Shown here piece by piece: positions 3,189-60,844 of a stretch of 64,000 bases of DNA. Under the pieces are notes generated by a model, which had not been told where the DNA came from, made no database searches, and saw nothing but the letters and a program-made list of their open reading frames with translations. Location of the stretch: assembly GCA_963668175.1 (NCBI GenBank), contig OY764159.1, forward strand, positions 2,112,001-2,176,000. The letters run 5' to 3'. The position numbers and the translations under genes were made by a program. How positions within the stretch are numbered: the stretch's first letter is position 1; each line of letters opens with the position of its first letter. The DNA comes from Syntrophales bacterium (GTDB lineage Bacteria > Desulfobacterota > Syntrophia > Syntrophales > PHBD01).

Positions 3189-4257
3189 ATCGAATAAATA
3201 AGTGGAAAATGATATGGACACGCTGACTTTGATTCAAATCAGTGATCTGCATATGCCAAGATTAATAGGAGAGCCGTCGAATATTGACTGGAAAGATAAG
3301 GGGTTTCCAAAACAATTAGGTCAGATAATAGTTACTCCTCGATGGCAAAGCGTAATGAGAGAATTGATAGATTATATTGAAAATAACCGACATTCAATCG
3401 GGGGAATTATTATCTGTGGTGATTTGACGGACAAAGGTGATTTATCAGGTTATGAGAATTGCTTAACATATTTAAATGAAACTCTGCAAATCGCCGATGA
3501 ACAAAGATGGCAAAAAAATCAAGTGCATATAGTTCCAGGGAATCACGATATTAACCGCAAGACGAATGATTCTAACAGTGGGGACATTTATCTCAAATTT
3601 GAACCATTAATCATGGCATGGCATAATTTAGGATTGCCAATCCTAACTACGAGAGGAGCTAGGCAGACACAAATGTCGGCGAATGGTAATAGTGTTGATG
3701 TTTTTTCAATAAATTCCTGTATTGGATGTGGTGAAAAGCGCTATATGCCCGCAGAAATTAAGGAGCAAATGCATGAAATGCTCAGGACAAACAATGAGTC
3801 TAATCTAATTTGGGAACAACTAGATACGCCAGCATTTTCAGAAGACGATATTAACAAGATTATAGCTAAAATCGATCAATTGTCCGGTTTGTCAGTGGGC
3901 GTGGTTGTAGCTCATCATAATTTATTGCCCCAAGTATCCCCCAGGCTTGAGATATACACGGAGGTTATCAATGGTGGCCTTGTGAGATCACGGTTGTCCC
4001 AGTGTAAACACCCCGTGATATATTGTCACGGGCATGTTCACGAAGATCCGATTGAAGTGGTGTTCAATGCAAGATCGAGGCGTAGCCGTCTGATTTCGAT
4101 AGCGTGTTCCAAGTTCACTGACGGATTCAACATCATTAAACTACATTTCTCCCGTCACGAGGTGAAGTAGCCCCCAATTGAACCGGACACTTTGAATCTG
4201 GAAATAAGTTGTAGGAATAGATATAGAGATATTACTACAACCAGAAAGAAGGTGTTT

Positions 4258-4635
4258 ATGGTTCCTGTAGAAGTGATCGTCGGTGTACAGAGGCGACGTC
4301 GCTGGTCGGCTGCCGAGAAGAAGTCGATGGTGCGGGAGGCGGAGCAGCCGGGAATGAGCATCTCGGCTGTAGCCCGGAAGTATGACATCCATCCGAACCA
4401 GTTGTTCCACTGGCGCAGGCTTGCCGAAGAAGGGGCTCTGTCGGCGGTTGGTGCAGATGAAGGCGTCGTTCCTGCATCGGAAGCCAGAGAACTGAAAAAG
4501 CAGATCCGGGAGTTGGAGCGTCTTCTGGGCAAAAAGACAATGGAGGTGGAGATATTAAGGGAGGCTGTCCGGATTGCCCGTGAAAAAAAACTGATCTCGC
4601 GGTTGCCGTTGTTGCCGGAGGACGATTCCCGATGA
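4258..4635 (+). CDS. IS2-type transposase OrfA (HTH)
   Basis: RRRRWSAAEK...SISAVARKYDIHPNQLFHWR; start codon uncertain. Confidence 0.88.
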   Translation: MVPVEVIVGVQRRRRWSAAEKKSMVREAEQPGMSISAVARKYDIHPNQLFHWRRLAEEGALSAVGADEGVVPASEARELKKQIRELERLLGKKTMEVEILREAVRIAREKKLISRLPLLPEDDSR

Positions 4636-5480
4636 AGACGGTTGTCGATACGCTGGACGTTTCCCGTTCCCGGCAGTACGAAAGGCAAGGGAAGGAAGCC
4701 GATTCGAGAAGCCGCCATTACAGGAGAGGCGACGATGGCAGATATCTTCTTCTGATCAGGCAGGTTATTGATAATCGTCCCAGTTACGGCTATCGGAGAG
4801 TAACGGCAAGAATCAACAAGCTTCTGGAACGTCAGGGGCATCCGGGAGTTAATCCCAAACGGATTTATCGTCTCATGAAGATGCACAATCTGCTTCTTCA
4901 GCGGCATACGGGTAGGCCGGCAAGGCTTCACGAGGGTAAGGTCACGACGAGACGGAGCGATCTTCGTTGGTGTTCTGATGCGTTTGAGATTGCCTGCTGG
5001 AATGGGGACCGTCTCCGGGTAGCGTTCAGCATGGATTGTTGCGACAGGGAAATCATGAGTTATATAGCCACGACAGGGGGCGTATCCGGCGACATGGTCA
5101 GGGACTTGATGGCGGAAGCCATTGAGGCCCGTTTCGGTATGATCAATCGGCTGCCTCACAGAATCCAGTGGCTGAGCGATAATGGTCCTGCGTACACCGC
5201 CAGGGAAACGAAAAGCTTTGGGCAGATGATGGGGCTTGAGGTTTGCACGACCCCGTTCTATAGCCCGGAATCGAACGGAATGGCCGAATCCTTTGTCAAG
5301 ACCTTCAAGAGGGATTATGTTCATCTGAATATCCTGACTGATGCCGAAACGGTCATGAAGCAACTGCCCGGATGGTTCGTAGACTACAATGAAAACCATC
5401 CGCACAAGGGATTGAAAATGATGTCGCCCAGGGAGTATAGGAGACATCAAAATAAGTTAGAACAGTGTCCGGTGAAATAG
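4632..5480 (+). CDS. IS2-type transposase OrfB (DDE/rve)
   Basis: YGYRRV, WCSD, WLSDNG, SPESNGMAESFVKTFKRDY. Confidence 0.95.
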   Translation: MKTVVDTLDVSRSRQYERQGKEADSRSRHYRRGDDGRYLLLIRQVIDNRPSYGYRRVTARINKLLERQGHPGVNPKRIYRLMKMHNLLLQRHTGRPARLHEGKVTTRRSDLRWCSDAFEIACWNGDRLRVAFSMDCCDREIMSYIATTGGVSGDMVRDLMAEAIEARFGMINRLPHRIQWLSDNGPAYTARETKSFGQMMGLEVCTTPFYSPESNGMAESFVKTFKRDYVHLNILTDAETVMKQLPGWFVDYNENHPHKGLKMMSPREYRRHQNKLEQCPVK

Positions 5481-5818
5481 GGGCAACTCCACGAGGTGCC
5501 TTTAGGATGTACAATTATTCCATATCGAGTTAGGAATGATGGATCTGTGAAAACCCAGGAAGAGATAAGTATTCCATTACGGACAAGTTTAGATACCCAA
5601 CTAATCTCAGATCAATTAACAAAGGCCATATTATCGAACATTAGACATGATTGGATTCGATTTGAAGAGATACGAAATGGAGTTGAGAGCCAGGGAACAT
5701 CAAAGCCGCAGAAGAAAACACTTGCGCATGCACTCAAAGAGCTTCAATGGCTCGGTTGCATCGAGATTAGGAATTCTGAAGAGGATGCGAAGCATTGGCA
5801 AGTCAAAAGGACGGAGTC

Positions 5819-36031: not shown

Positions 36032-38760
36032 CTAGTGTTGCGGGTAATCGGAAGCCTTTGAAAGCTCTTTGACCTTCCATAAGAAGTACAATTCATCTTG
36101 ACTGATCGTCTCTTTCTTGTCGCTCTTCGCCATGGTTTCTTCAATGACTTCCGCACCTATTTTAGTCGCTCCAAATGCAGCAGCGCCTGCCAGCGGCGTT
36201 GTAAAGATTCCAGTTAGAAAACCAACAGATATAGCACCCGTCCATCCTGCAATTTTGCGCACAACTCCCTTAAAAAGGGATTTATCAGCTTTGCTAATTT
36301 TAGCGCTCAGAGATGCTAAGCGTGGTTGAAGAATGTCCGCATAAACTGCTTGAGCATCTCTCTCTGTAAATGAGTCACCCGCTATCTTGTATTCTTCTAT
36401 CGCTTTGGTCAATGCTGCTCTGAACAAAATGAATGCTTCTTGTTCGCTATTTCGAAGTTTTATAAGGCTTTGTGCGTCAACAGATTCAACGAAAGGAAGA
36501 AGGCAGGTAAGATATTTTTGCATAAGCATTGTATGCCGCCTAGCTATCGGATCACCCGTTAAGTTCTTTATGAAATTAATTTCGAGATCACTATCAGTGG
36601 AGTTGCCCCTATTTCACCGGACACTGTTCTAACTTATTTTGATGTCTCCTATACTCCCTGGGCGACATCATTTTCAATCCCTTGTGCGGATGGTTTTCAT
36701 TGTAGTCTACGAACCATCCGGGCAGTTGCTTCATGACCGTTTCGGCATCAGTCAGGATATTCAGATGAACATAATCCCTCTTGAAGGTCTTGACAAAGGA
36801 TTCGGCCATGCCGTTCGATTCCGGGCTGTAGAACGGGGTCGTGCAAACCTCAAGCCCCATCATCTGCCCAAAGCTTTTCGTTTCCCTGGCGGTGTACGCA
36901 GGACCATTATCGCTCAGCCACTGGATTCTGTGAGGCAGCCGATTGATCATACCGAAACGGGCCTCAATGGCTTCCGCCATCAAGTCCCTGACCATGTCGC
37001 CGGATACGCCCCCTGTCGTGGCTACATAACTCATGATTTCCCTGTCGCAACAATCCATGCTGAACGCTACCCGGAGACGGTCCCCATTCCAGCAGGCAAT
37101 CTCAAACGCATCGGAACACCAACGAAGATCGCTCCGTCTCGTCGTGACCTTACCCTCGTGAAGCCTTGCCGGCCTACCCGTATGCCGCTGAAGAAGCAGA
37201 TTGTGCATCTTCATGAGACGATAAATCCGTTTGGGGTTAACTCCCGGATGCCCCTGACGTTCCAGAAACCTGTTGATTCTTGCCGTTACTCTCCGATAGC
37301 CGTAACTGGGACGATTATCAATAACCTGCCTGATCAGAAGAAGATATCTGCCATCGTCGCCTCTCCTGTAATGGCGGCTTCTCGAATCGGCTTCCTTCCC
37401 TTGCCTTTCGTACTGCCGGGAACGGGAAACGTCCAGCGTATCGACAACCGTCTTCATCGGGAATCGTCCTCCGGCAACAACGGCAACCGCGAGATCAGTT
37501 TTTTTTCACGGGCAATCCGGACAGCCTCTCTTAATATCTCCACCTCCATTGTCTTTTTGCCCAGAAGACGCTCCAACTCCCGGATCTGCTTCTTCAGTTC
37601 TCTGGCTTCCGATGCAGGAACGACGCCTTCATCTGCACCAACCGCCGACAGAGCCCCTTCTTCGGCAAGCCTGCGCCAGTGGAACAGTTGGTTCGGATGG
37701 ATGTCATACTTCCGGGCTACAGCCGAGATGCTCATTCCCGGCTGCTCCGCCTCCCGCACCGTCGACTTCTTCTCGGCAGCCGACCAGCGACGTCGCCTCT
37801 GTACACCGACGATCACTTCTACAGGAACCATAAACACCTTCTTTCTGGTTGTAGTAATATCTCTATATCTATTCCTACAACTTATTTCCAGATTCAAAGT
37901 GTCCGGTTCAATTGGGGGCTACTTCAATCAGACAAGAATGATGTCTTCAGCAAATCAGCAACACCTAATTCAAAGGCGATATTGTGAATGAGCGGTGTGA
38001 AGGGTATGTTATGCGCCTTAAGCTTTTTAGCTTGATCTGTGGTTAGCTTAATTATTCCACATTTTTTGACCTGCTCTACAAGCCTTGGAGCTTTACTATA
38101 GATTTCGTCCTGGATAAGATAAGTATGACACCACAAACCATGAGGTAATATTGAATCTGGCCCAGAACTGATTAGTGTCATTTCGTCATTCTTATAAATG
38201 AGTGAGTATGCTACTTCCTTCAAAAACCTTCTACGTAACGCATCTGACAACACGTTATATCTTGGGTTCTTATCCTGCGATAGAGCATCTATACATAGAC
38301 AATGCGGACAAACATTGCCAAAAGAAACCATCTGGACTATGTCAGATTCAATTAAAGGCAGTAATTCACAAAATACAATCAAATCATCCAAGAATTTATA
38401 GCGGAAAAAGGCCTCTAAATTCGCTGGTTTTCTATCAGCATACGCAAGTAAGTCTGTAAAATAATTCTTGATGAAAACCTTATCACTGTATAAAGCGGCA
38501 AACTGTGTCAACTCTCTAATCTTTTCAATTCGGCATGAAGGACTGGAACATGGATATGAACTTCCACCCAAAGATGGCGCTGCGGCGTGAGAGAATATCG
38601 ACGGACTGGCATTTATATTGGTATAATGTGTTATATCGGTGGATTGTTGGCAAACATCAATAATATGGCTTGCCTTCAGTTTGCGAATATACTTTATGAT
38701 TGGTTTGCCATTTCTTATCAACCCGGCATTTTCAAACAAAGCCTTAAGAGGGTGTTCCAT
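36032..38760 (-). pseudogene. Low-GC hypothetical gene (~465 aa) interrupted by an IS
   Basis: Removing the IS and one ATCAG copy joins ...KTSFLSD to SDLEINFIK...MLMQKY in frame. Confidence 0.85.
36598..37926 (-). mobile_element. Second copy of the IS2-group IS3 element, 1329 bp, TSD ATCAG
   Basis: Nearly identical to 4163-5491 in inverted orientation; ATCAG at 36593-36597 and 37927-37931; orfB 36609-37457, orfA 37454-37831. Confidence 0.97.
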
Positions 38761-54614: not shown

Positions 54615-54656
54615 GAATCAGAGACTTTCATATGACAGGCCGCGCCCCCCGCATGG

Positions 54657-54844
54657 GGGGTGTTGAAAAACGCCCATCTGTTACTTGCCCCCTTCAGGGG
54701 GGGCTTTTGCGCGTCCCCTAAAGGGGATAAATCACCTAAAGGTGACAAGCCTTGCATCTGGACATTTTTGAACCCCCTGAAGGGGGCGAGCAACCTGCGT
54801 TCCCCCTGCATAGGGGGTTCAAAAGCGAGTTTTTCAACAAGCTG
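54657..54844. mobile_element. MITE-like element with terminal IRs and multiple internal hairpins, between MoxR and VWA
   Basis: TGTTGAAAAAC ... GTTTTTCAACA IRs; internal CCCCC/GGGGG, TCCCCT/AGGGGA and TCACCT/AGGTGA hairpins. Confidence 0.7.
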
Positions 54845-54880
54845 TTAAATCCCGATAGCTCCGGCGGCGCCCCCCGCCTG

Positions 54881-55789
54881 TCAGGGGACGACGCGGTCCA
54901 TGTGCTTGCGCACCTTCTCCATGTCCGCCCGGTACTTGCAGATGACGTTCAGCGTCTCCGAAACGACCTCAGGCGTCAGCTCCGCGATTTGCAGGGCCAG
55001 GAGCGACTGCGCCCAGTCCAGCGTTTCCGAGATGCTGGGGCTCTTCTTGAGATCGAGGCCGCGGATTTTGCGGATGGCGGAAACCAGCGCGGCGCAAAGC
55101 TTTGCCTCGATGCCGGGGATCTTCAGGCGGACGATGGCGATCTCCGTATCCTCGGCGGGGTAGTCGATGTAGAGGTGGACGCAGCGGCGCTTGAGGGCGT
55201 CGCTCATGTCTCGGTAGTTGTTGGACGTAAGGAGCACGAAGGGGATCTTCACGGCCTTGCGGGTGCCCAGCTCCGGGATGGACACCTGGAAGTCGCTTAA
55301 AAGCTCAAGAAGGAAGGCCTCGAACTCCGGGTCGGACTTGTCGACTTCGTCCAGAAGCAGCACCACCGGCTCCTTCGAGCTGATCGCCTGCAGGAGCGGG
55401 CGCGGCTGGATGAAGCGGTCGGAGAAGAAGGCGTCCTCCTGGGCGCCGATCTGGTCCACCGCCTCCGTCAGGGTCGCCGTGGGGGCGATGATGTCGTTGA
55501 TGCGGTCTTTCACCATCTGCGTGTAGAGGAGCTGCTTCGCGTACTCCCATTCGTAGAGGGCCTTGGCCTCGTCCAGCCCCTCGTAGCACTGGAGGCGGAT
55601 CAGCTCGCGGCCGAGGCTCCGGGCGACGGCCTTGGCCAGTTCCGTCTTGCCGACGCCCGCCGGCCCTTCGATCAGGACGGGCTTCTGCGTCGCCTGCGCC
55701 AGGAAGACGACCGTCGCGATCTCCCGCGACGGAATATAGCCCGCCTCCGCGAGCCTCTTCTCCACATCGTCGACACTCCGGTAATCCAT
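54881..55789 (-). CDS. MoxR/CoxD-family AAA+ ATPase
   Basis: EGPAGVGKTE, IRLQCYEGLD, LLDEVDK, DALKRRC; start MDYRSV. Confidence 0.95.
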   Translation of the reverse strand: MDYRSVDDVEKRLAEAGYIPSREIATVVFLAQATQKPVLIEGPAGVGKTELAKAVARSLGRELIRLQCYEGLDEAKALYEWEYAKQLLYTQMVKDRINDIIAPTATLTEAVDQIGAQEDAFFSDRFIQPRPLLQAISSKEPVVLLLDEVDKSDPEFEAFLLELLSDFQVSIPELGTRKAVKIPFVLLTSNNYRDMSDALKRRCVHLYIDYPAEDTEIAIVRLKIPGIEAKLCAALVSAIRKIRGLDLKKSPSISETLDWAQSLLALQIAELTPEVVSETLNVICKYRADMEKVRKHMDRVVP

Positions 55790-56156
55790 GAATAACGTCG
55801 TCCTTTCCTTGCGATACATATCCGGCGGCACGTGCCCGGGTACAGGGCGCAAGACCGCGCCGTCGCCTGCCGCCTGAGGATACCACCGGGGCCGCCGGAT
55901 GCCCAGCAAAATCTATCTCTTGGAAAAACGGGGGGTTAACGGGGCGGACAGATGCCAATCCGGAGAAAGTGCGGGCCTCGGAGGGATATCAAAAAAACGG
56001 ACGGAAAGCGGGCGGAAACGGAAAGACGAGACCGGTTGGCGAATCATGGGCGTCGGGATAATTCCGGGGACACCACACTTAATTATTATAATAAAATAAA
56101 GTGAACCGTCGCCGTTGCCGCCCGGCCGGAAACACCCTTCCCCGGAACCCTTTCCC

Positions 56157-56837
56157 CTAACGCACGGGCTGGTTTTCAGGGCGTATCCATTGGGGGAGGA
56201 TGGATTTCTCGATCCTGACCTTCTGCAATGCGGGGTATTCGGAAAGGTACAGCTTCATATCCTCCTCGAATCTATCTTCGGCAACAACATCGTAAGTCCC
56301 CGTGGAAGCGCCGACCACCGCCTGATCGATCAGCGGTACGACTTTTCCCGCTCTTTCTTCGCTGTCGCTTTTCCTTTCCCGCAGCACGACGTCAAGATGT
56401 CCCAGGTAGATCACGGCGTTCGGTTTGATCTCCAGTTTATAATTCAGCGGAACGGAGCCGCCGCCGGTAATCGGGAAATGATCGTATGCCGCGCCGATGC
56501 TGTGAAAGGTGTACGCGCCTCCCGCAAGCTCAAAACTCAGCAGGTATTCGTTGAAGCTGTTCTCCACGCTTTTTATCCGGTAAGGAATGTCGGCCCTGTA
56601 GAAGCTGCTCCTCGACCCGTGGTCGCATCGCTCCGATTGCGGGCAGATAAGCGCGCCCATGATATCCAGCTGGTAGCCCGGCTTGTGCTGGTTCGCAATC
56701 TTGACCGAAAGCAGGGCCAGCGATTTTTTGGAGACGTCAATGTCCGTCTGGCCCTTGGTGAGCGCCATGTTGCCGCCCGCGCAACCCGCCATGACGAAGA
56801 CGGAACACAAGACGATAAGAAACCTTCGACTGATCAT
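56157..56837 (-). CDS. Lipoprotein of unknown function (cassette 1)
   Basis: RBS GGGAGG, MISRRFLIVLCSVFVMAGC lipobox. Confidence 0.8.
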   Translation of the reverse strand: MISRRFLIVLCSVFVMAGCAGGNMALTKGQTDIDVSKKSLALLSVKIANQHKPGYQLDIMGALICPQSERCDHGSRSSFYRADIPYRIKSVENSFNEYLLSFELAGGAYTFHSIGAAYDHFPITGGGSVPLNYKLEIKPNAVIYLGHLDVVLRERKSDSEERAGKVVPLIDQAVVGASTGTYDVVAEDRFEEDMKLYLSEYPALQKVRIEKSILPQWIRPENQPVR

Positions 56838-57007
56838 AACCCCTCCCGGCCAACGCCTCATCCATGATATCGGGGAATTCGTGAATTCGGGGGGCACCAC
56901 ACTCATTTAACAAAATTCCCCTGCCTGGCGGTTAATAATTAAGTATGACGTCCCCGGAATTACGACTGCCTGGCGGTTTATAATTAAGTATGGTGTCCCT
57001 GAATTGA

Positions 57008-57491
57008 CGATCTGGTCCACCGCCTCCGTCAGGGTCGCGGTGGGGGCGATGATGTCGTTGATGCGGTCCTTCACCATCTGCGTGTAGAGGAGCTGCTTGG
57101 CGTACTCCCATTCGTAGAGGGCCTTGGCCTCGTCCAGCCCCTCGTAGCACTGGAGGCGGATCAGCTCGCGGCCGAGGCTCCGGGCGACGGCCTTGGCCAG
57201 CTCCGTCTTGCCGACGCCCGCCGGCCCCTCGATCAGGACGGGCTTCTGCGTCGCCTGCGCCAGGAAGACGACCGTCGCAATCTCCCGCGAGGGGATGTAG
57301 CCCGCCTCCGTCAGCCTCTTCTCCACATCGTCGACACTCCGGTAATCCATGAATAACGTCGTCCTTTCCCTGCGATACATATCCGGCGGCACAAGCCCGG
57401 TTACAGGGCGCACAACCGCGCCGCCGCCTGCCGCCTGAGGATACCACCGGGGCCGCCGGATGCCCAGCAAAATATATCATTGGGAAAAACG
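57008..57491 (-). pseudogene. Truncated second allele of the MoxR 5' region plus upstream DNA (cassette 2), homologous to 55447-55930
   Basis: Bounded on both sides by the palindromic repeats; stops at ...AVDQI. Confidence 0.93.
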
Positions 57492-57603
57492 TCTGAATTT
57501 GGGGGACACCACGCTCATTTATCAGAATTCCCCTGCATGGCGGTTTATAATTAAGTATGGTGTCCCCCGAATTACGTTTGCGCCTGATTGCTGTGCGGCG
57601 ATA

Positions 57604-58134
57604 TTAGTAACGGCGCCGACGTATATTAACGCAGAGCCAGCAATTATTTTGATGTTGTACCAACTCAATCTTGAAATGGGGACTTCTTCGGATGCCGAAT
57701 CTATAAGGATAGAATTTGAATTCACGTGCCATTTGGGGAAAACGAAGTTTTAGACCGTCGACATACCGAGTGACACTTGGCTTATCAAGCCACGGACCAG
57801 TTTGTGGGTGTGGATCTTTGTATACGATGACTTGCCCTTTGGAGTCTCTGTAAATCGCAGTGGCACTATCTGGAAGAGATGCTGGAAATACGTCGTAAGG
57901 GCCACAAATTCTGTGGTGGGTAGTTGATGCCCTGAAATATGGTGCATCCTCAAAGAATACCTTTGTGCCATCTTCATAAGCAGTGAAACCTTCGCCTGAT
58001 TTTGTAAGCAATGGAAGGTGCTTTTCTGTCAGTCCAAAAAGTTGTTCTTTATCGCATTCCTCCCAAAACCATGTGCGCCAGTAATCATGACCATTCCTAC
58101 TGACAACGGAGGCTTCATATGACCAAGGCATCAT
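57604..58134 (-). CDS. Hypothetical protein (cassette 3)
   Basis: Low GC; RBS AAGGAG; fills the space between two repeats. Confidence 0.6.
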   Translation of the reverse strand: MMPWSYEASVVSRNGHDYWRTWFWEECDKEQLFGLTEKHLPLLTKSGEGFTAYEDGTKVFFEDAPYFRASTTHHRICGPYDVFPASLPDSATAIYRDSKGQVIVYKDPHPQTGPWLDKPSVTRYVDGLKLRFPQMAREFKFYPYRFGIRRSPHFKIELVQHQNNCWLCVNIRRRRY

Positions 58135-58305
58135 CAATCTCCTTTTCTGGAAAGTTCAAGCACTTTCCAATTAATATTACAAACAAATGGTGCAAATGAC
58201 GGAATTCGGGAATTCGGGGAACATCCATATTCATTTGTCTGAATTCCCCTGCCTGGCGGTTAATAATTAAGTATGACGTCCCCGGAATTGTGCTGTGGTT
58301 GGGAT

Positions 58306-58857
58306 TTAATAAAATCTTTTGTTCATAGCTTTCTTATAAACGTTCTCTAGATCAAACGTTACAGGATCTCTCTCCCCATCATCTGTTGAATTATCAATTA
58401 AATTGAACGCTATACCACCATTTTCAATTTCACCCAAAAAGCACAATTCTTTTTTTGAGGCTCTTCTGGCTAAGGCAAACTCTCCATGATCGCCTAAATA
58501 ATTATCCTTAAAGTCATCATCCCATTCGGGAACTGCTAGAACATAGACTTTATATTTGTTTTGCTGTGGGGATCCTATTATTAAAAGATATTTTTTATTA
58601 GTTTGCCGACTAAATACTTCTATTTTTTTATCATCATGCCATTCATATCCGTCAGGTTTTATTTCTATCCAACAACTGTAATCAGGGAGATAAAAATCAG
58701 GTAAGTACCATGTACCATCAATATCAAATCCTTCAACTTCATATTGATATTCTATTTCGAGTTCATCAAAGAACACCGCCCAGCGCGCTTCTAATCTACT
58801 ACGAAATTTGATGCCGTTATAATTTGTTTCAATAGTTTTTATCATTTTCCATCCCAA
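58306..58857 (-). CDS. Phage-type PD-(D/E)XK nuclease-like protein (cassette 4)
   Basis: FRSRLEARWAVFFD...YE.EG...YLPDFYLP...WIEIKP. Confidence 0.75.
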   Translation of the reverse strand: MGWKMIKTIETNYNGIKFRSRLEARWAVFFDELEIEYQYEVEGFDIDGTWYLPDFYLPDYSCWIEIKPDGYEWHDDKKIEVFSRQTNKKYLLIIGSPQQNKYKVYVLAVPEWDDDFKDNYLGDHGEFALARRASKKELCFLGEIENGGIAFNLIDNSTDDGERDPVTFDLENVYKKAMNKRFY

Positions 58858-58932
58858 CGATTAATATACCAACTTGGTTTATGCGATTTCCGGAGGCAAT
58901 ATTACGTCCCTGAATTGTTCGGAATTGGCAAG

Positions 58933-59469
58933 TCATTTTTTAATAATGCATCTTTGTAGATGCTCTTGAACTTCTCTCGGAAATTCATTGGCAGCTATTG
59001 AATCATCAAATAGCCACTTAAAATAAATAACCACTATATATCGTAGATCCCACATTGAAAAAATTGAATTATCAATTTCAATGTAAATTTCTGGTTTATT
59101 ATCGAAATATGATCTCCAGTCGCCCACTATAGGCGGGTAGGTTTTCTTCACCGGTGTTTTCTCATAATTTTTTTTTCGTAGAATCATATGCTTACTACCA
59201 TTGGTTAAATCTTTAAAAGCTTTTAACAACACCTGCATTTCAGATGTAGTACGTCCTTTTTTTTGACGAGCTAATCTGGGGCGATTCTGATCTTCGTCAA
59301 TCCAGTCATCATATAAGTGCCATGCAGTCACGAAAAAATTAAAACAATCATAAGGATTGCATTCCTCGCTCAATTTTTTATCTTCATAGAGCAGCTTCAT
59401 CAACATATCGTAACTACTACTTATTCCATAATCAAAATGTGGCGTATTATTTTCTATCAAGTCATTCAT
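58933..59469 (-). CDS. Hypothetical protein, possibly HEPN-like (cassette 5)
   Basis: NFFVTAWHL.D.W and KDLTNGSKH motifs; very low GC. Confidence 0.6.
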   Translation of the reverse strand: MNDLIENNTPHFDYGISSSYDMLMKLLYEDKKLSEECNPYDCFNFFVTAWHLYDDWIDEDQNRPRLARQKKGRTTSEMQVLLKAFKDLTNGSKHMILRKKNYEKTPVKKTYPPIVGDWRSYFDNKPEIYIEIDNSIFSMWDLRYIVVIYFKWLFDDSIAANEFPREVQEHLQRCIIKK

Positions 59470-59636
59470 ATGATTTATAAATTCTATGCCATACAGAATT
59501 CGGGGGACACATACTCATTTATCTGAATTCTCCTGAATGGCGGTTAATCATTAAGTATGGACGTCCCCTGAATTGGCGCACTTTTCAGAATAAACACATC
59601 AGCAATATCATAAACGCAAGGGCTTAAATTCCGCGT

Positions 59637-59909
59637 TTACTTCACGAAGTCTCTTAGTGCCTTACCGGCTTTGAACGTAGGAACTTTCTTGGCCGCAATT
59701 TTAATTGTTTTTCCAGTCTGTGGATTTCTTCCTTCTCTGGCCTTTCGCTTTGCAACAGAGTATGTGCCGAAACCAACAATCGTCACGGCGCTATCTCTTT
59801 TCATTGCGCCTTGAATGGCCTGATGATAACAATCAATGCAGCGGCTGGCCTGGGCTTTCGTAACTCCGGCACAACCAGCCACAAATGAAACGACATCTGC
59901 TTTATTCAT
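59637..59909 (-). CDS. HU-family DNA-binding protein
   Basis: MNKADVV, VGFGTY, RKAREGRNPQTG, VPTFKAGKALRD. Confidence 0.92.
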   Translation of the reverse strand: MNKADVVSFVAGCAGVTKAQASRCIDCYHQAIQGAMKRDSAVTIVGFGTYSVAKRKAREGRNPQTGKTIKIAAKKVPTFKAGKALRDFVK

Positions 59910-60516
59910 TTTTGCCCCTCCCCTTTTCGCTCTGCAACTGGAATTTGAGAGCCGCGATTTCTCTATCCCGCCGATCAATCTCCGCTTTCGATTGTTCAAT
60001 TTGTGATTTCAGCAAATACACTTCTCTTTTCAAATCGTTATTGGAAGGCTTAATATAATTCACATAGGCCCACGCGGACGAAGCGACGACCGCAACAACG
60101 GATACAGTGAACGTAGCCAGCTTCCACGGTTTGGCTTTCTTCGCCTCCAATATGTCAAGCCTTTCTTTCGTTGACAGCACGCCTGTGAGCTCCCAATGAT
60201 GCCTGCATTTCACCGGCATGTTTTCGGGATCTTTTAAATAGCCTCCCAGGCAAGTCCGCTTCACAGCCTTACGTATCAGAGACGTATCGCACTCTTCGCC
60301 GTTGTCGAATTTGGCAATTTCATCTTCTATAATCTTCTGGTCCTCGCGATCCAGAGTTTCTATAGAGTGGTCTTCGACGTACAAGTAGCAATTGTTCAAG
60401 CAATTTGGCAAGAATGGCCTCCTGGTACCTTCAGGAAACTGGTTCAACGCGAACGCGAGAGATAGGAAATGCAGTGAGATGTGAAAAACTTTGAACCGAT
60501 TTATGAGGCTTGTCAA
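59902..60516 (-). CDS. Hypothetical membrane-anchored coiled-coil protein (start uncertain)
   Basis: One TM segment plus coiled coil; stop overlaps the HU start. Confidence 0.55.
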   Translation of the reverse strand: MTSLINRFKVFHISLHFLSLAFALNQFPEGTRRPFLPNCLNNCYLYVEDHSIETLDREDQKIIEDEIAKFDNGEECDTSLIRKAVKRTCLGGYLKDPENMPVKCRHHWELTGVLSTKERLDILEAKKAKPWKLATFTVSVVAVVASSAWAYVNYIKPSNNDLKREVYLLKSQIEQSKAEIDRRDREIAALKFQLQSEKGRGKNE

Positions 60517-60844
60517 GATGAAATATCAGTAAAATCAATAAAAAGATATGCAATCAGCCTCTAGTAATCTTGCGGGCGGGGATATGAGGGGAGGAAGAAG
60601 AAAAGAGGTTTTAAGAAACGGACATGGTGAAACATAGATCATTTATTCACGACTATTAATTGGCATCAACAAGATACTCGACGGAGGTGATTAATGACTA
60701 CAGGAAAAATCCTTGATTCGCGATGGGGTTTGCGGCTGCCGTCGGGAATGTCTTATTTCCGGCAAGGGACGCATGGTCCCGCCGGTCTTTCCCTCCCGCC
60801 GGCCGCCGGCCTGGCCCGGCGCGGTCGCCGTTCCCGGCTGCCGT

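Follow-up and report, generated by a model that had tools for sequence, protein, structure and literature searches.

Orphan TIRtron ends punctuate an integron-like array of foreign genes in a Syntrophales bacterium

How do genes of disparate origin come to stand one behind the other on a bacterial chromosome, each set apart from the next by the same palindrome? The question is raised by a Syntrophales bacterium (GenBank assembly GCA_963668175.1), in a 64,000-nucleotide stretch of contig OY764159.1 (positions 2,112,001 to 2,176,000), hereafter the window, where such palindromes fill the interval between a moxR-type gene and a gene for an HU-family protein. A first-pass annotation had seen here a gene-capture platform resembling an integron, delimited by palindromes other than attC sites and driven by a recombinase encoded elsewhere, for example a Y1/HUH transposase of the kind associated with repetitive extragenic palindromic (REP) sequences. 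The palindromes are, as far as sequence comparison tells, non-autonomous miniature TIRtrons, that is, the paired terminal inverted repeats (TIRs, here called arms) of a mobile element whose Y1/HUH transposase gene has been deleted. As for the island itself, we lean, with appreciable doubt, towards a patchwork of foreign pieces joined at the outer ends of these arms and helped by homologous recombination.

Repeat search located seven copies in the array, the annotation having counted at least that many: four full, one half arm, one tandem partial copy and one stub of 11 nt. The full copies, about 78 nt long, lie in a common orientation and share 82–88% identity pairwise. A pattern scan of species genomes returned 115 stretches, which record titles assign to Desulfobacterales, Rhodospirillales, Nitrospiraceae, Planctomycetaceae, Bacillota and others. 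The 113 distinct elements yield a 25-bp arm consensus, AATTNNGGGGACACCATACTTAATT, with two inward-facing arms around a variable spacer. Within the 226-arm consensus GGGGACAC, part of which was fixed by the search pattern, stands at 94–100% per column, and the window arms match it. The core of the arm agrees with GGGGWSAS, the TIRtron motif; TIRtrons were published in 2013 as a Y1/HUH gene, TIRYT, bounded by TIRs with that motif (Di Nocera et al., PMC3733652). In the classification of Quentin et al. (10.1101/279083), TIRYT is subclass 2.1 of TnpA-Y1. This type of repeat family has therefore been in print since 2013.

The annotation had proposed to look for the repeat beside RAYT or Y1 transposases in relatives, and it is there: when Y1 open reading frames (ORFs) were picked by motif in 30 loci of other genomes, 13 of 25 had an arm within 150 nt. 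The arm-flanked genes score above the cut-off of PF01797, while against NF047646 they reach 65–77 bits, below its cut-off of 80. Three related transposases match PF01797 alone at E<=0.001, and these proteins of 214–221 amino acids (aa) have no helix-turn-helix (HTH) match in Pfam. One genome (G080) carries internal-deletion derivatives of its own element; it is because of these derivatives, and because the same arms flank Y1/HUH genes elsewhere, that we take the window palindromes to be gene-less mini-TIRtrons. At three further loci (L057:4995-5850, L220:1404-2250, L276:815-1657) the transposase gene sits between two full palindromes, the nearer arms being reversed and the gene spacing usual.

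The element spreads like an insertion sequence (IS), since genome G032 holds six 742-bp copies, 99% identical, at different sites and without target duplication; some RAYT groups have been reported as highly duplicated (PMC5581495). The mini elements are 55–123 nt long (n=228). In 178 of them the NN letters are alike in both arms, where about 19% would be expected. Target-site duplication is usual for MITEs (miniature transposable elements with inverted repeats) of the DDE type. Here a duplication of 2 nt or more is absent in 212 of the 228, which fits an HUH enzyme. The arms also 'stutter', leaving a short extra copy of the arm start at 88/456 outer ends vs 2/420 control sites (on a wider count, beside 164/648 arms vs 4/494), and locus L188 shows partial element copies.

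The annotation was right about the kind of enzyme, but the gene that it supposed to lie elsewhere is missing from this genome: the complete host genome has no PF01797 match, and a protein search for the Y1 transposase gave a best E of 0.43. The host copies are orphan derivatives without a transposase gene, not TIRtrons proper. In the order at large, arms occur in 55 of 151 genomes and related transposases in 102 of 151, with no arms in the eight other genomes of the host's family. Arms were absent from the viral contigs searched, PLSDB gave no TIRtron match, and Rfam gave none near gathering score for the array repeats. The spacer of the array repeats has four matches in the 4.57-Mb genome, all in the array, plus one armless match with five mismatches elsewhere; it is absent from all other fetched loci, a metagenome search did not recover it, and an autonomous parent carrying it was not found. 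Four informative sites support two incompatible groupings, so that the full copies are mosaic. Folding surpasses that of shuffled sequences in only two of the four (z −4.0 and −2.9) and not in the others (z +0.2 and +0.6).

What, then, lies between the arms? The five segments have GC contents of 0.56, 0.65, 0.44, 0.34 and 0.33 in order, with one minus-strand ORF each, which agrees with the annotation; three array genes stop 6–30 nt from an arm. That the segments are unrelated to their surroundings does not hold throughout. The moxR segment (Table 1) repeats the 5′ part of the moxR gene next door together with its promoter: it duplicates 55447–55930, which lies 1,561 nt away, and departs from it at 22 of 484 nt (95.5% identity). 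Ten of the 11 coding differences fall at third positions and one amino acid changes, giving P=1.3e-4 if all were neutral, a value that weakens if half of the changes arose in the intact copy. This bias indicates that the piece diverged under selection, as a functional allele carried by a relative, and it led us to reject a local tandem duplication followed by neutral decay. An arrangement of the same sort is found in another genome, G145, where 20 arms in a 12-kb stack separate RelE/RelB, MazF, AbiEii, AbrB, three AAA_14-DUF4143 genes and the transposase itself. An extracytoplasmic function (ECF) sigma gene adjoins the stack, and inside the stack is a 3′ fragment, 96% identical to that gene, which starts at the outer end of one arm and stops 13 nt from another; 7 of its 10 changes are at third positions (P=0.02). 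In G032, a shortened Rhs module also ends at an arm. The private spacer, the moxR allele cut at arms and its counterpart in G145 are points in favour of an active role for the arms, as are the common orientation and the mosaic make-up of the copies.

The explanation we favour begins with four observations, namely the identity of the repeats, the absence of the enzyme, the attI relic described below and the positions of the junctions, and draws its steps from HUH chemistry and junction anatomy. The joints were most likely made at arm outer ends by TIRYT, while an autonomous copy existed in the lineage or in a donor. The enzyme would nick the outer end of an arm and join the arm to nearby DNA. 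A short jump would leave a tandem stutter; a long one would give a partial element copy, an adjacent deletion, or a circle in which an arm and cargo are accompanied by part of the flanking chromosomal gene. This circle, or arm-ended DNA from outside, might enter the chromosome of a relative by homologous recombination in the flanking gene, leaving the displaced gene fragment behind. Given a circle with an arm, the lipoprotein gene and the first part of moxR, one crossover in a relative's moxR would produce exactly the observed duplication with its 1,561-nt unit; linear incoming DNA joined at one arm end would have the same outcome, and would resemble the homology-facilitated illegitimate recombination put forward for displacement arrays (PMC5361080). 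A relic integron piece (attI and first cassette), trimmed by arms on both sides, would have been stacked likewise; the array now stands without the enzyme. As a precedent, TnpA-REP of Escherichia coli is described as performing cleavage and strand transfer in vitro with little target specificity (PMC3333891).

The integron relic deserves attention, for the array does contain something of an ordinary integron. The annotation had read a collapsed repeat copy near 58885–58917; its arm portion stands as the 11-nt stub, and the remainder is an attI-like site, which we recognise from its context. A pattern for the site is present in 28 of 29 fetched loci, its conservation stopping at GTT and varied genes following. 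A divergent intI adjoins it in 4 of the 28, two being of full length (about 414 bits vs a cut-off of 265). This family (L401-L429) is conserved across the order, often without intI and sometimes in several copies per genome. The host has a second, weaker site with three mismatches, on the minus strand at 2211439, before a low-GC gene of 155 aa. In the window the arm stub occupies intI's place on the far side of attI. ORF4 starts 10 nt past the attI crossover, and its stop is followed by an R''-like 8-mer, whose frequency in the genome is 1.1e-5 per position; among eight other first cassettes inspected, four likewise have 8 nt after the stop that complement those of the crossover. ORF4 is apparently the first cassette of a relic integron. 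Element C begins 8 nt past the 8-mer, so that the remainder of the attC is gone; the bases past the 8-mer score poorly as attC, and the cassette reading accordingly draws on the 8-mer and attI.

Table 1. Features of the array and its two borders (window coordinates).
Feature	Position	Strand	Remarks
moxR-type gene for an AAA ATPase, resident; anchors the island on the left	54881..55789	-	Pfam AAA_5/AAA; upstream of VWA_CoxE gene
Single TIR arm	56060..56084	+	inner end towards lipoprotein gene; profile score 38 of 43.7
Probable lipoprotein gene, 226 aa	56157..56837	-	N-terminus lipobox-like on visual inspection
Full two-arm mini element A	56884..56961	.	repeat search, arm profile
Tandem partial copy (stutter), arm and part of spacer	56963..57006	-	outer end touches shortened moxR piece
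Diverged moxR allele: promoter with codons 1-114	57008..57491	-	cut 1-2 nt from arm outer ends on both sides
Full two-arm mini element B	57496..57573	.	repeat search, arm profile
ORF3, about 175 aa	57604..58137	-	9 homologues at 50-70% identity, no family; Atlas matches under 0.9
Full two-arm mini element C	58211..58289	.	outer end 8 nt past R'' box of former attC of ORF4
R''-like 8-mer directly after ORF4 stop	58298..58305	-	exact complement of 8 nt at attI crossover
ORF4, PD-(D/E)XK-like nuclease, 179 aa	58306..58845	-	PHROG 21138 E 1.6e-27; Holliday-junction resolvase E 6e-13
attI-like site without intI	58856..58905	-	putative, by context; matched in 61/300 other genomes of the order
11-nt arm stub (58906-58916) and 7-nt stutter	58906..58926	-	fused to attI; starts 6 nt after ORF5 stop
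ORF5, 178 aa, possibly HEPN-like	58933..59469	-	12 homologues; model pLDDT 72.7
Full two-arm mini element E	59497..59574	.	repeat search
HU-family DNA-binding protein gene, right neighbour	59637..59909	-	PF00216 E 9e-30

Could the whole array then be a CALIN, a cluster of attC sites lacking an integrase, with the palindromes as its attC sites? The attI-like site and the one true cassette inside the array would invite this view, and yet it is largely refuted, to the point that we give it next to no credence. A covariance model built from 11 attC sites of this order, which recovered eight held-out sites at E<0.003, found none in the array, where the annotation had expected none, nor in two further clusters of the host or in the array of G145, and none genome-wide among the 150 of 1715 candidates that were scored. 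Moreover, the repeat ends lack AAC and GTT, and no segment lying upstream of attI can belong to its cassettes. Two crude attC pattern scans, of a kind that missed known degenerate sites, saw nothing in the array. The host genome has no integron integrase above cut-off (TIGR02249, best 83 bits vs 265).

Elsewhere the arms do meet integrons from time to time. attC sites occur in 9 of 177 arm-selected loci, and at 3 of 492 arm flanks vs one control, so that targeting of attC by arms is rare. A TIRtron or an arm lies inside an attC site and cuts it at L189:2550-2646, L247:3377-3460 and L177:1501. A unit made of an arm, about 57 nt and an attC recurs in two genomes (L239:4325-4463 and 2527-2665, L245:5074-5212, L247:3263-3401). 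In a single case (L192:1790-1831), GTTAG directly follows the inner end of an arm, looking like an attI crossover and possibly making a secondary integrase site.

A more serious contender keeps the arms and denies them any work. The genes would have arrived by other routes, such as integron activity or homology-facilitated illegitimate recombination, and mini-TIRtrons would have hopped locally into a permissive, AT-rich island, trimming their neighbours by adjacent deletion without carrying cargo. We hold this to be a possibility to be reckoned with, while less probable than joining at the arms. In its favour, relatives of the cargo genes have no arms nearby (0/23 loci: 0/20 for the lipoprotein and 0/3 for ORF4), lipoprotein relatives adjoin attC-like sites in three genomes, ORF4 would have entered through attI, and palindromes of other genomes lie for the most part between ordinary genes, housekeeping ones among them (G038; L240-L242). 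It must nevertheless call on chance to explain why both cuts of the moxR allele fall at an arm and why G145 is alike in this, and it leaves the one-way orientation and the mosaic copies aside, though local hopping could produce them.

The distribution of the elements in the host counts on the side of joining at the arms. A catalogue of 31 elements of two subtypes was assembled; 16 of its 30 gaps are shorter than 3 kb, where random placement gave a mean of 0.6 and a maximum of 6 in 10,000 trials. A flank under 45% GC accompanies 61% of host elements vs 8.5% at random, and 30 of the 31 lie within 1.95–2.90 Mb, mostly just before the GC-skew maximum. Clusters at 2604150-2619570 and 2659320-2662100 (L004, L005), mostly of the second subtype with an extra internal dyad, bracket AT-rich single genes.

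A number of observations pull away from joining by the arms. The host catalogue was seeded from the clusters themselves, and clustering in AT-rich DNA also fits a passive target preference. Other genomes show no GC contrast across 107 palindromes (median 0.03, equal to that of 521 control pairs), two or more arm clusters are found in 26 of 119 loci, and displaced fragments at arm outer ends in 3 of 227 arm-bearing loci. The likeness to a cryptic arm at the moxR breakpoint is not significant (rank 11–27 of 1026). An empty-site comparison for G032 within its genus failed, the relatives being too distant; for the host, neither a same-genus genome nor an informative second strain in reads was found. 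Circles, which the annotation had suggested looking for, and rearranged joints did not appear in reads. Finally, the literature consulted contains no assay of any TIRYT. As to the reads, contigs of run X2, possibly the source sample, match 55883-56943, 57444-58271 and 58260-60980 without differences and without a skipped cassette. A candidate joint 56084-57551 in run X6 was set aside, as one side has 21 nt and likely represents another organism's repeat.

There is also the machine that the annotation imagined, in which a gene with one palindrome would form a mobile cassette, to be cut out by a Y1 enzyme and put in at a different palindrome. The single gene per segment, the tight spacing from stop to arm, the co-orientation and the mosaic repeats speak for it, as do the G145 array and the TIRYT genes between two palindromes mentioned above. 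So does ORF5, found at 99% identity in an unrelated metagenome where core-gene contigs reach about 90% and the neighbours of ORF5 are uncovered, at a weak depth of about 4. Against it, neither a fixed insertion site nor a promoter was found in the array (the promoter scan stayed at chance level), the host has no enzyme, and the shortened moxR piece and the attI relic make un-cassette-like cargo. Among 87 inter-arm segments, no cargo is common to the arrays of different genomes except transposase pieces, Rhs cores and one distant pair of repeat proteins, and an all-against-all DNA comparison of 368 loci revealed no cargo with arm-defined borders common to different genomes. We judge a dedicated platform improbable, the relatives of the cargo lacking the repeats and part of the array being an ordinary integron relic. 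The annotation had set this idea against randomly scattered MITEs with a cassette order fixed across strains; half of that picture applies, the repeats being MITE-like end pairs of an IS-like element.

As for the cargo itself, the lipoprotein matches nothing in Pfam, NCBIfam, PADLOC or PHROG; of 300 genomes from the order, 16 have a member of its family, the attC-like neighbours mentioned above belonging to three of these. The nuclease-like character assigned to ORF4 is borne out (Table 1), and the protein was not found in viral contigs. ORF5 is absent from 300 genomes searched, and the top fold matches of its model are HEPN toxins and Csm6 (Z 4.6–4.9, root-mean-square deviation 3.6–3.9), which makes it possibly HEPN-like, a lead and not a proof. 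Around the island, none of five distant relatives has arms beside moxR. A palindromic repeat of another, unrelated kind occupies 54633-54850 of the window, where it separates moxR from the VWA gene, and recurs at several other genome sites. The window also contains two inverted copies, 1,330 nt long and 99% identical, of a probable IS (4163-5492 and 36597-37926).

Rhs orphan arrays are another place where arms occur. In the host toxin-immunity array at 2079575-2089220 (L003), arms precede 4 of 7 modules. In G032 (L235-L237), where 12 arms were examined, all but one carry a common Rhs leader inside (11 of 12) and variable DNA outside. All Rhs modules of both genomes carry a short junction motif, GTTCTTTGA, at the start of the core fragment. 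The idea that such arrays are wholly made by arms is weakened by the three host modules without arms and by this other motif, present in all.

How does this compare with known systems? The TIRs of TIRtrons are described as singles, dimers and clusters (PMC3733652; 10.1101/279083), as here. The multi-copy, IS-like spread, the stutters, the lack of target duplication and the stacking of cargo are features seen here and not in the accessible parts of the published description; subclass 2.1 is described there with a C-terminal HTH (10.1101/279083), whereas the related proteins here have no such Pfam match, and the present host is devoid of TIRYT. REP sequences, BIMEs and REPINs with their RAYTs share a related enzyme, two-arm intergenic palindromes and tandem local amplification (PMC3333891, PMC5581495), but in those accounts copies are dispersed in hundreds, not clustered in tens, and arms are GTAG-tagged hairpins, which ours are not. 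Like MITEs, our elements are short, gene-less and built from the ends of an autonomous element. With integrons and CALINs, as outlined in PMC12444791, the array shares co-oriented single-gene segments and an attI-like site with one cassette; it differs in having no intI above cut-off, no intact attC, and transposon ends as repeats. Displacement arrays made by homology-facilitated illegitimate recombination, such as those of the Vibrio cholerae type VI secretion system and the Rhs orphans, also leave a displaced fragment of the anchor gene behind new cargo (PMC5361080), but the non-homologous joint here falls on the end of a transposon, and a candidate enzyme can thereby be named. TIME-COMPs, composite elements bounded by MITEs, illustrate that non-autonomous ends can bracket cargo (PMC13367494), and IS1111-attC elements, reportedly, that some elements land in attC sites, as the arms rarely do; both belong to other enzyme families, and the arms make no target duplication.

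It is tempting to go further, and to see in TIRtron ends a general, enzyme-made joint that stacks foreign genes beside conserved chromosomal genes through one-ended HUH transfer, circles of arm, cargo and anchor, and homologous recombination. We offer this as a speculation that may well prove wrong. A literature search that extended neither to most subscription journals nor to the supplements of the TIRYT papers found no paper on the stacking of cargo by TIRtron ends. Were the speculation correct, this would be a distinct route of gene capture, and it would furnish some displacement arrays, perhaps the Rhs orphan arrays among them, with the non-homologous joint that they have been missing. The role of RAYT-family enzymes is an open question in the field, to which the present elements bring particulars that can be tested. 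These are the consensus of the 25-bp arm, a multi-copy element of IS-like behaviour with sharp ends and without target duplication, a stutter signature, and two islands in which a displaced gene fragment ends exactly at an arm. If the arms make the joints, anaerobic bacteria would have an unrecognised route for accumulating genes of the defence type. If they do not, orphan ends still mimic integron arrays and can mask real integron relics.

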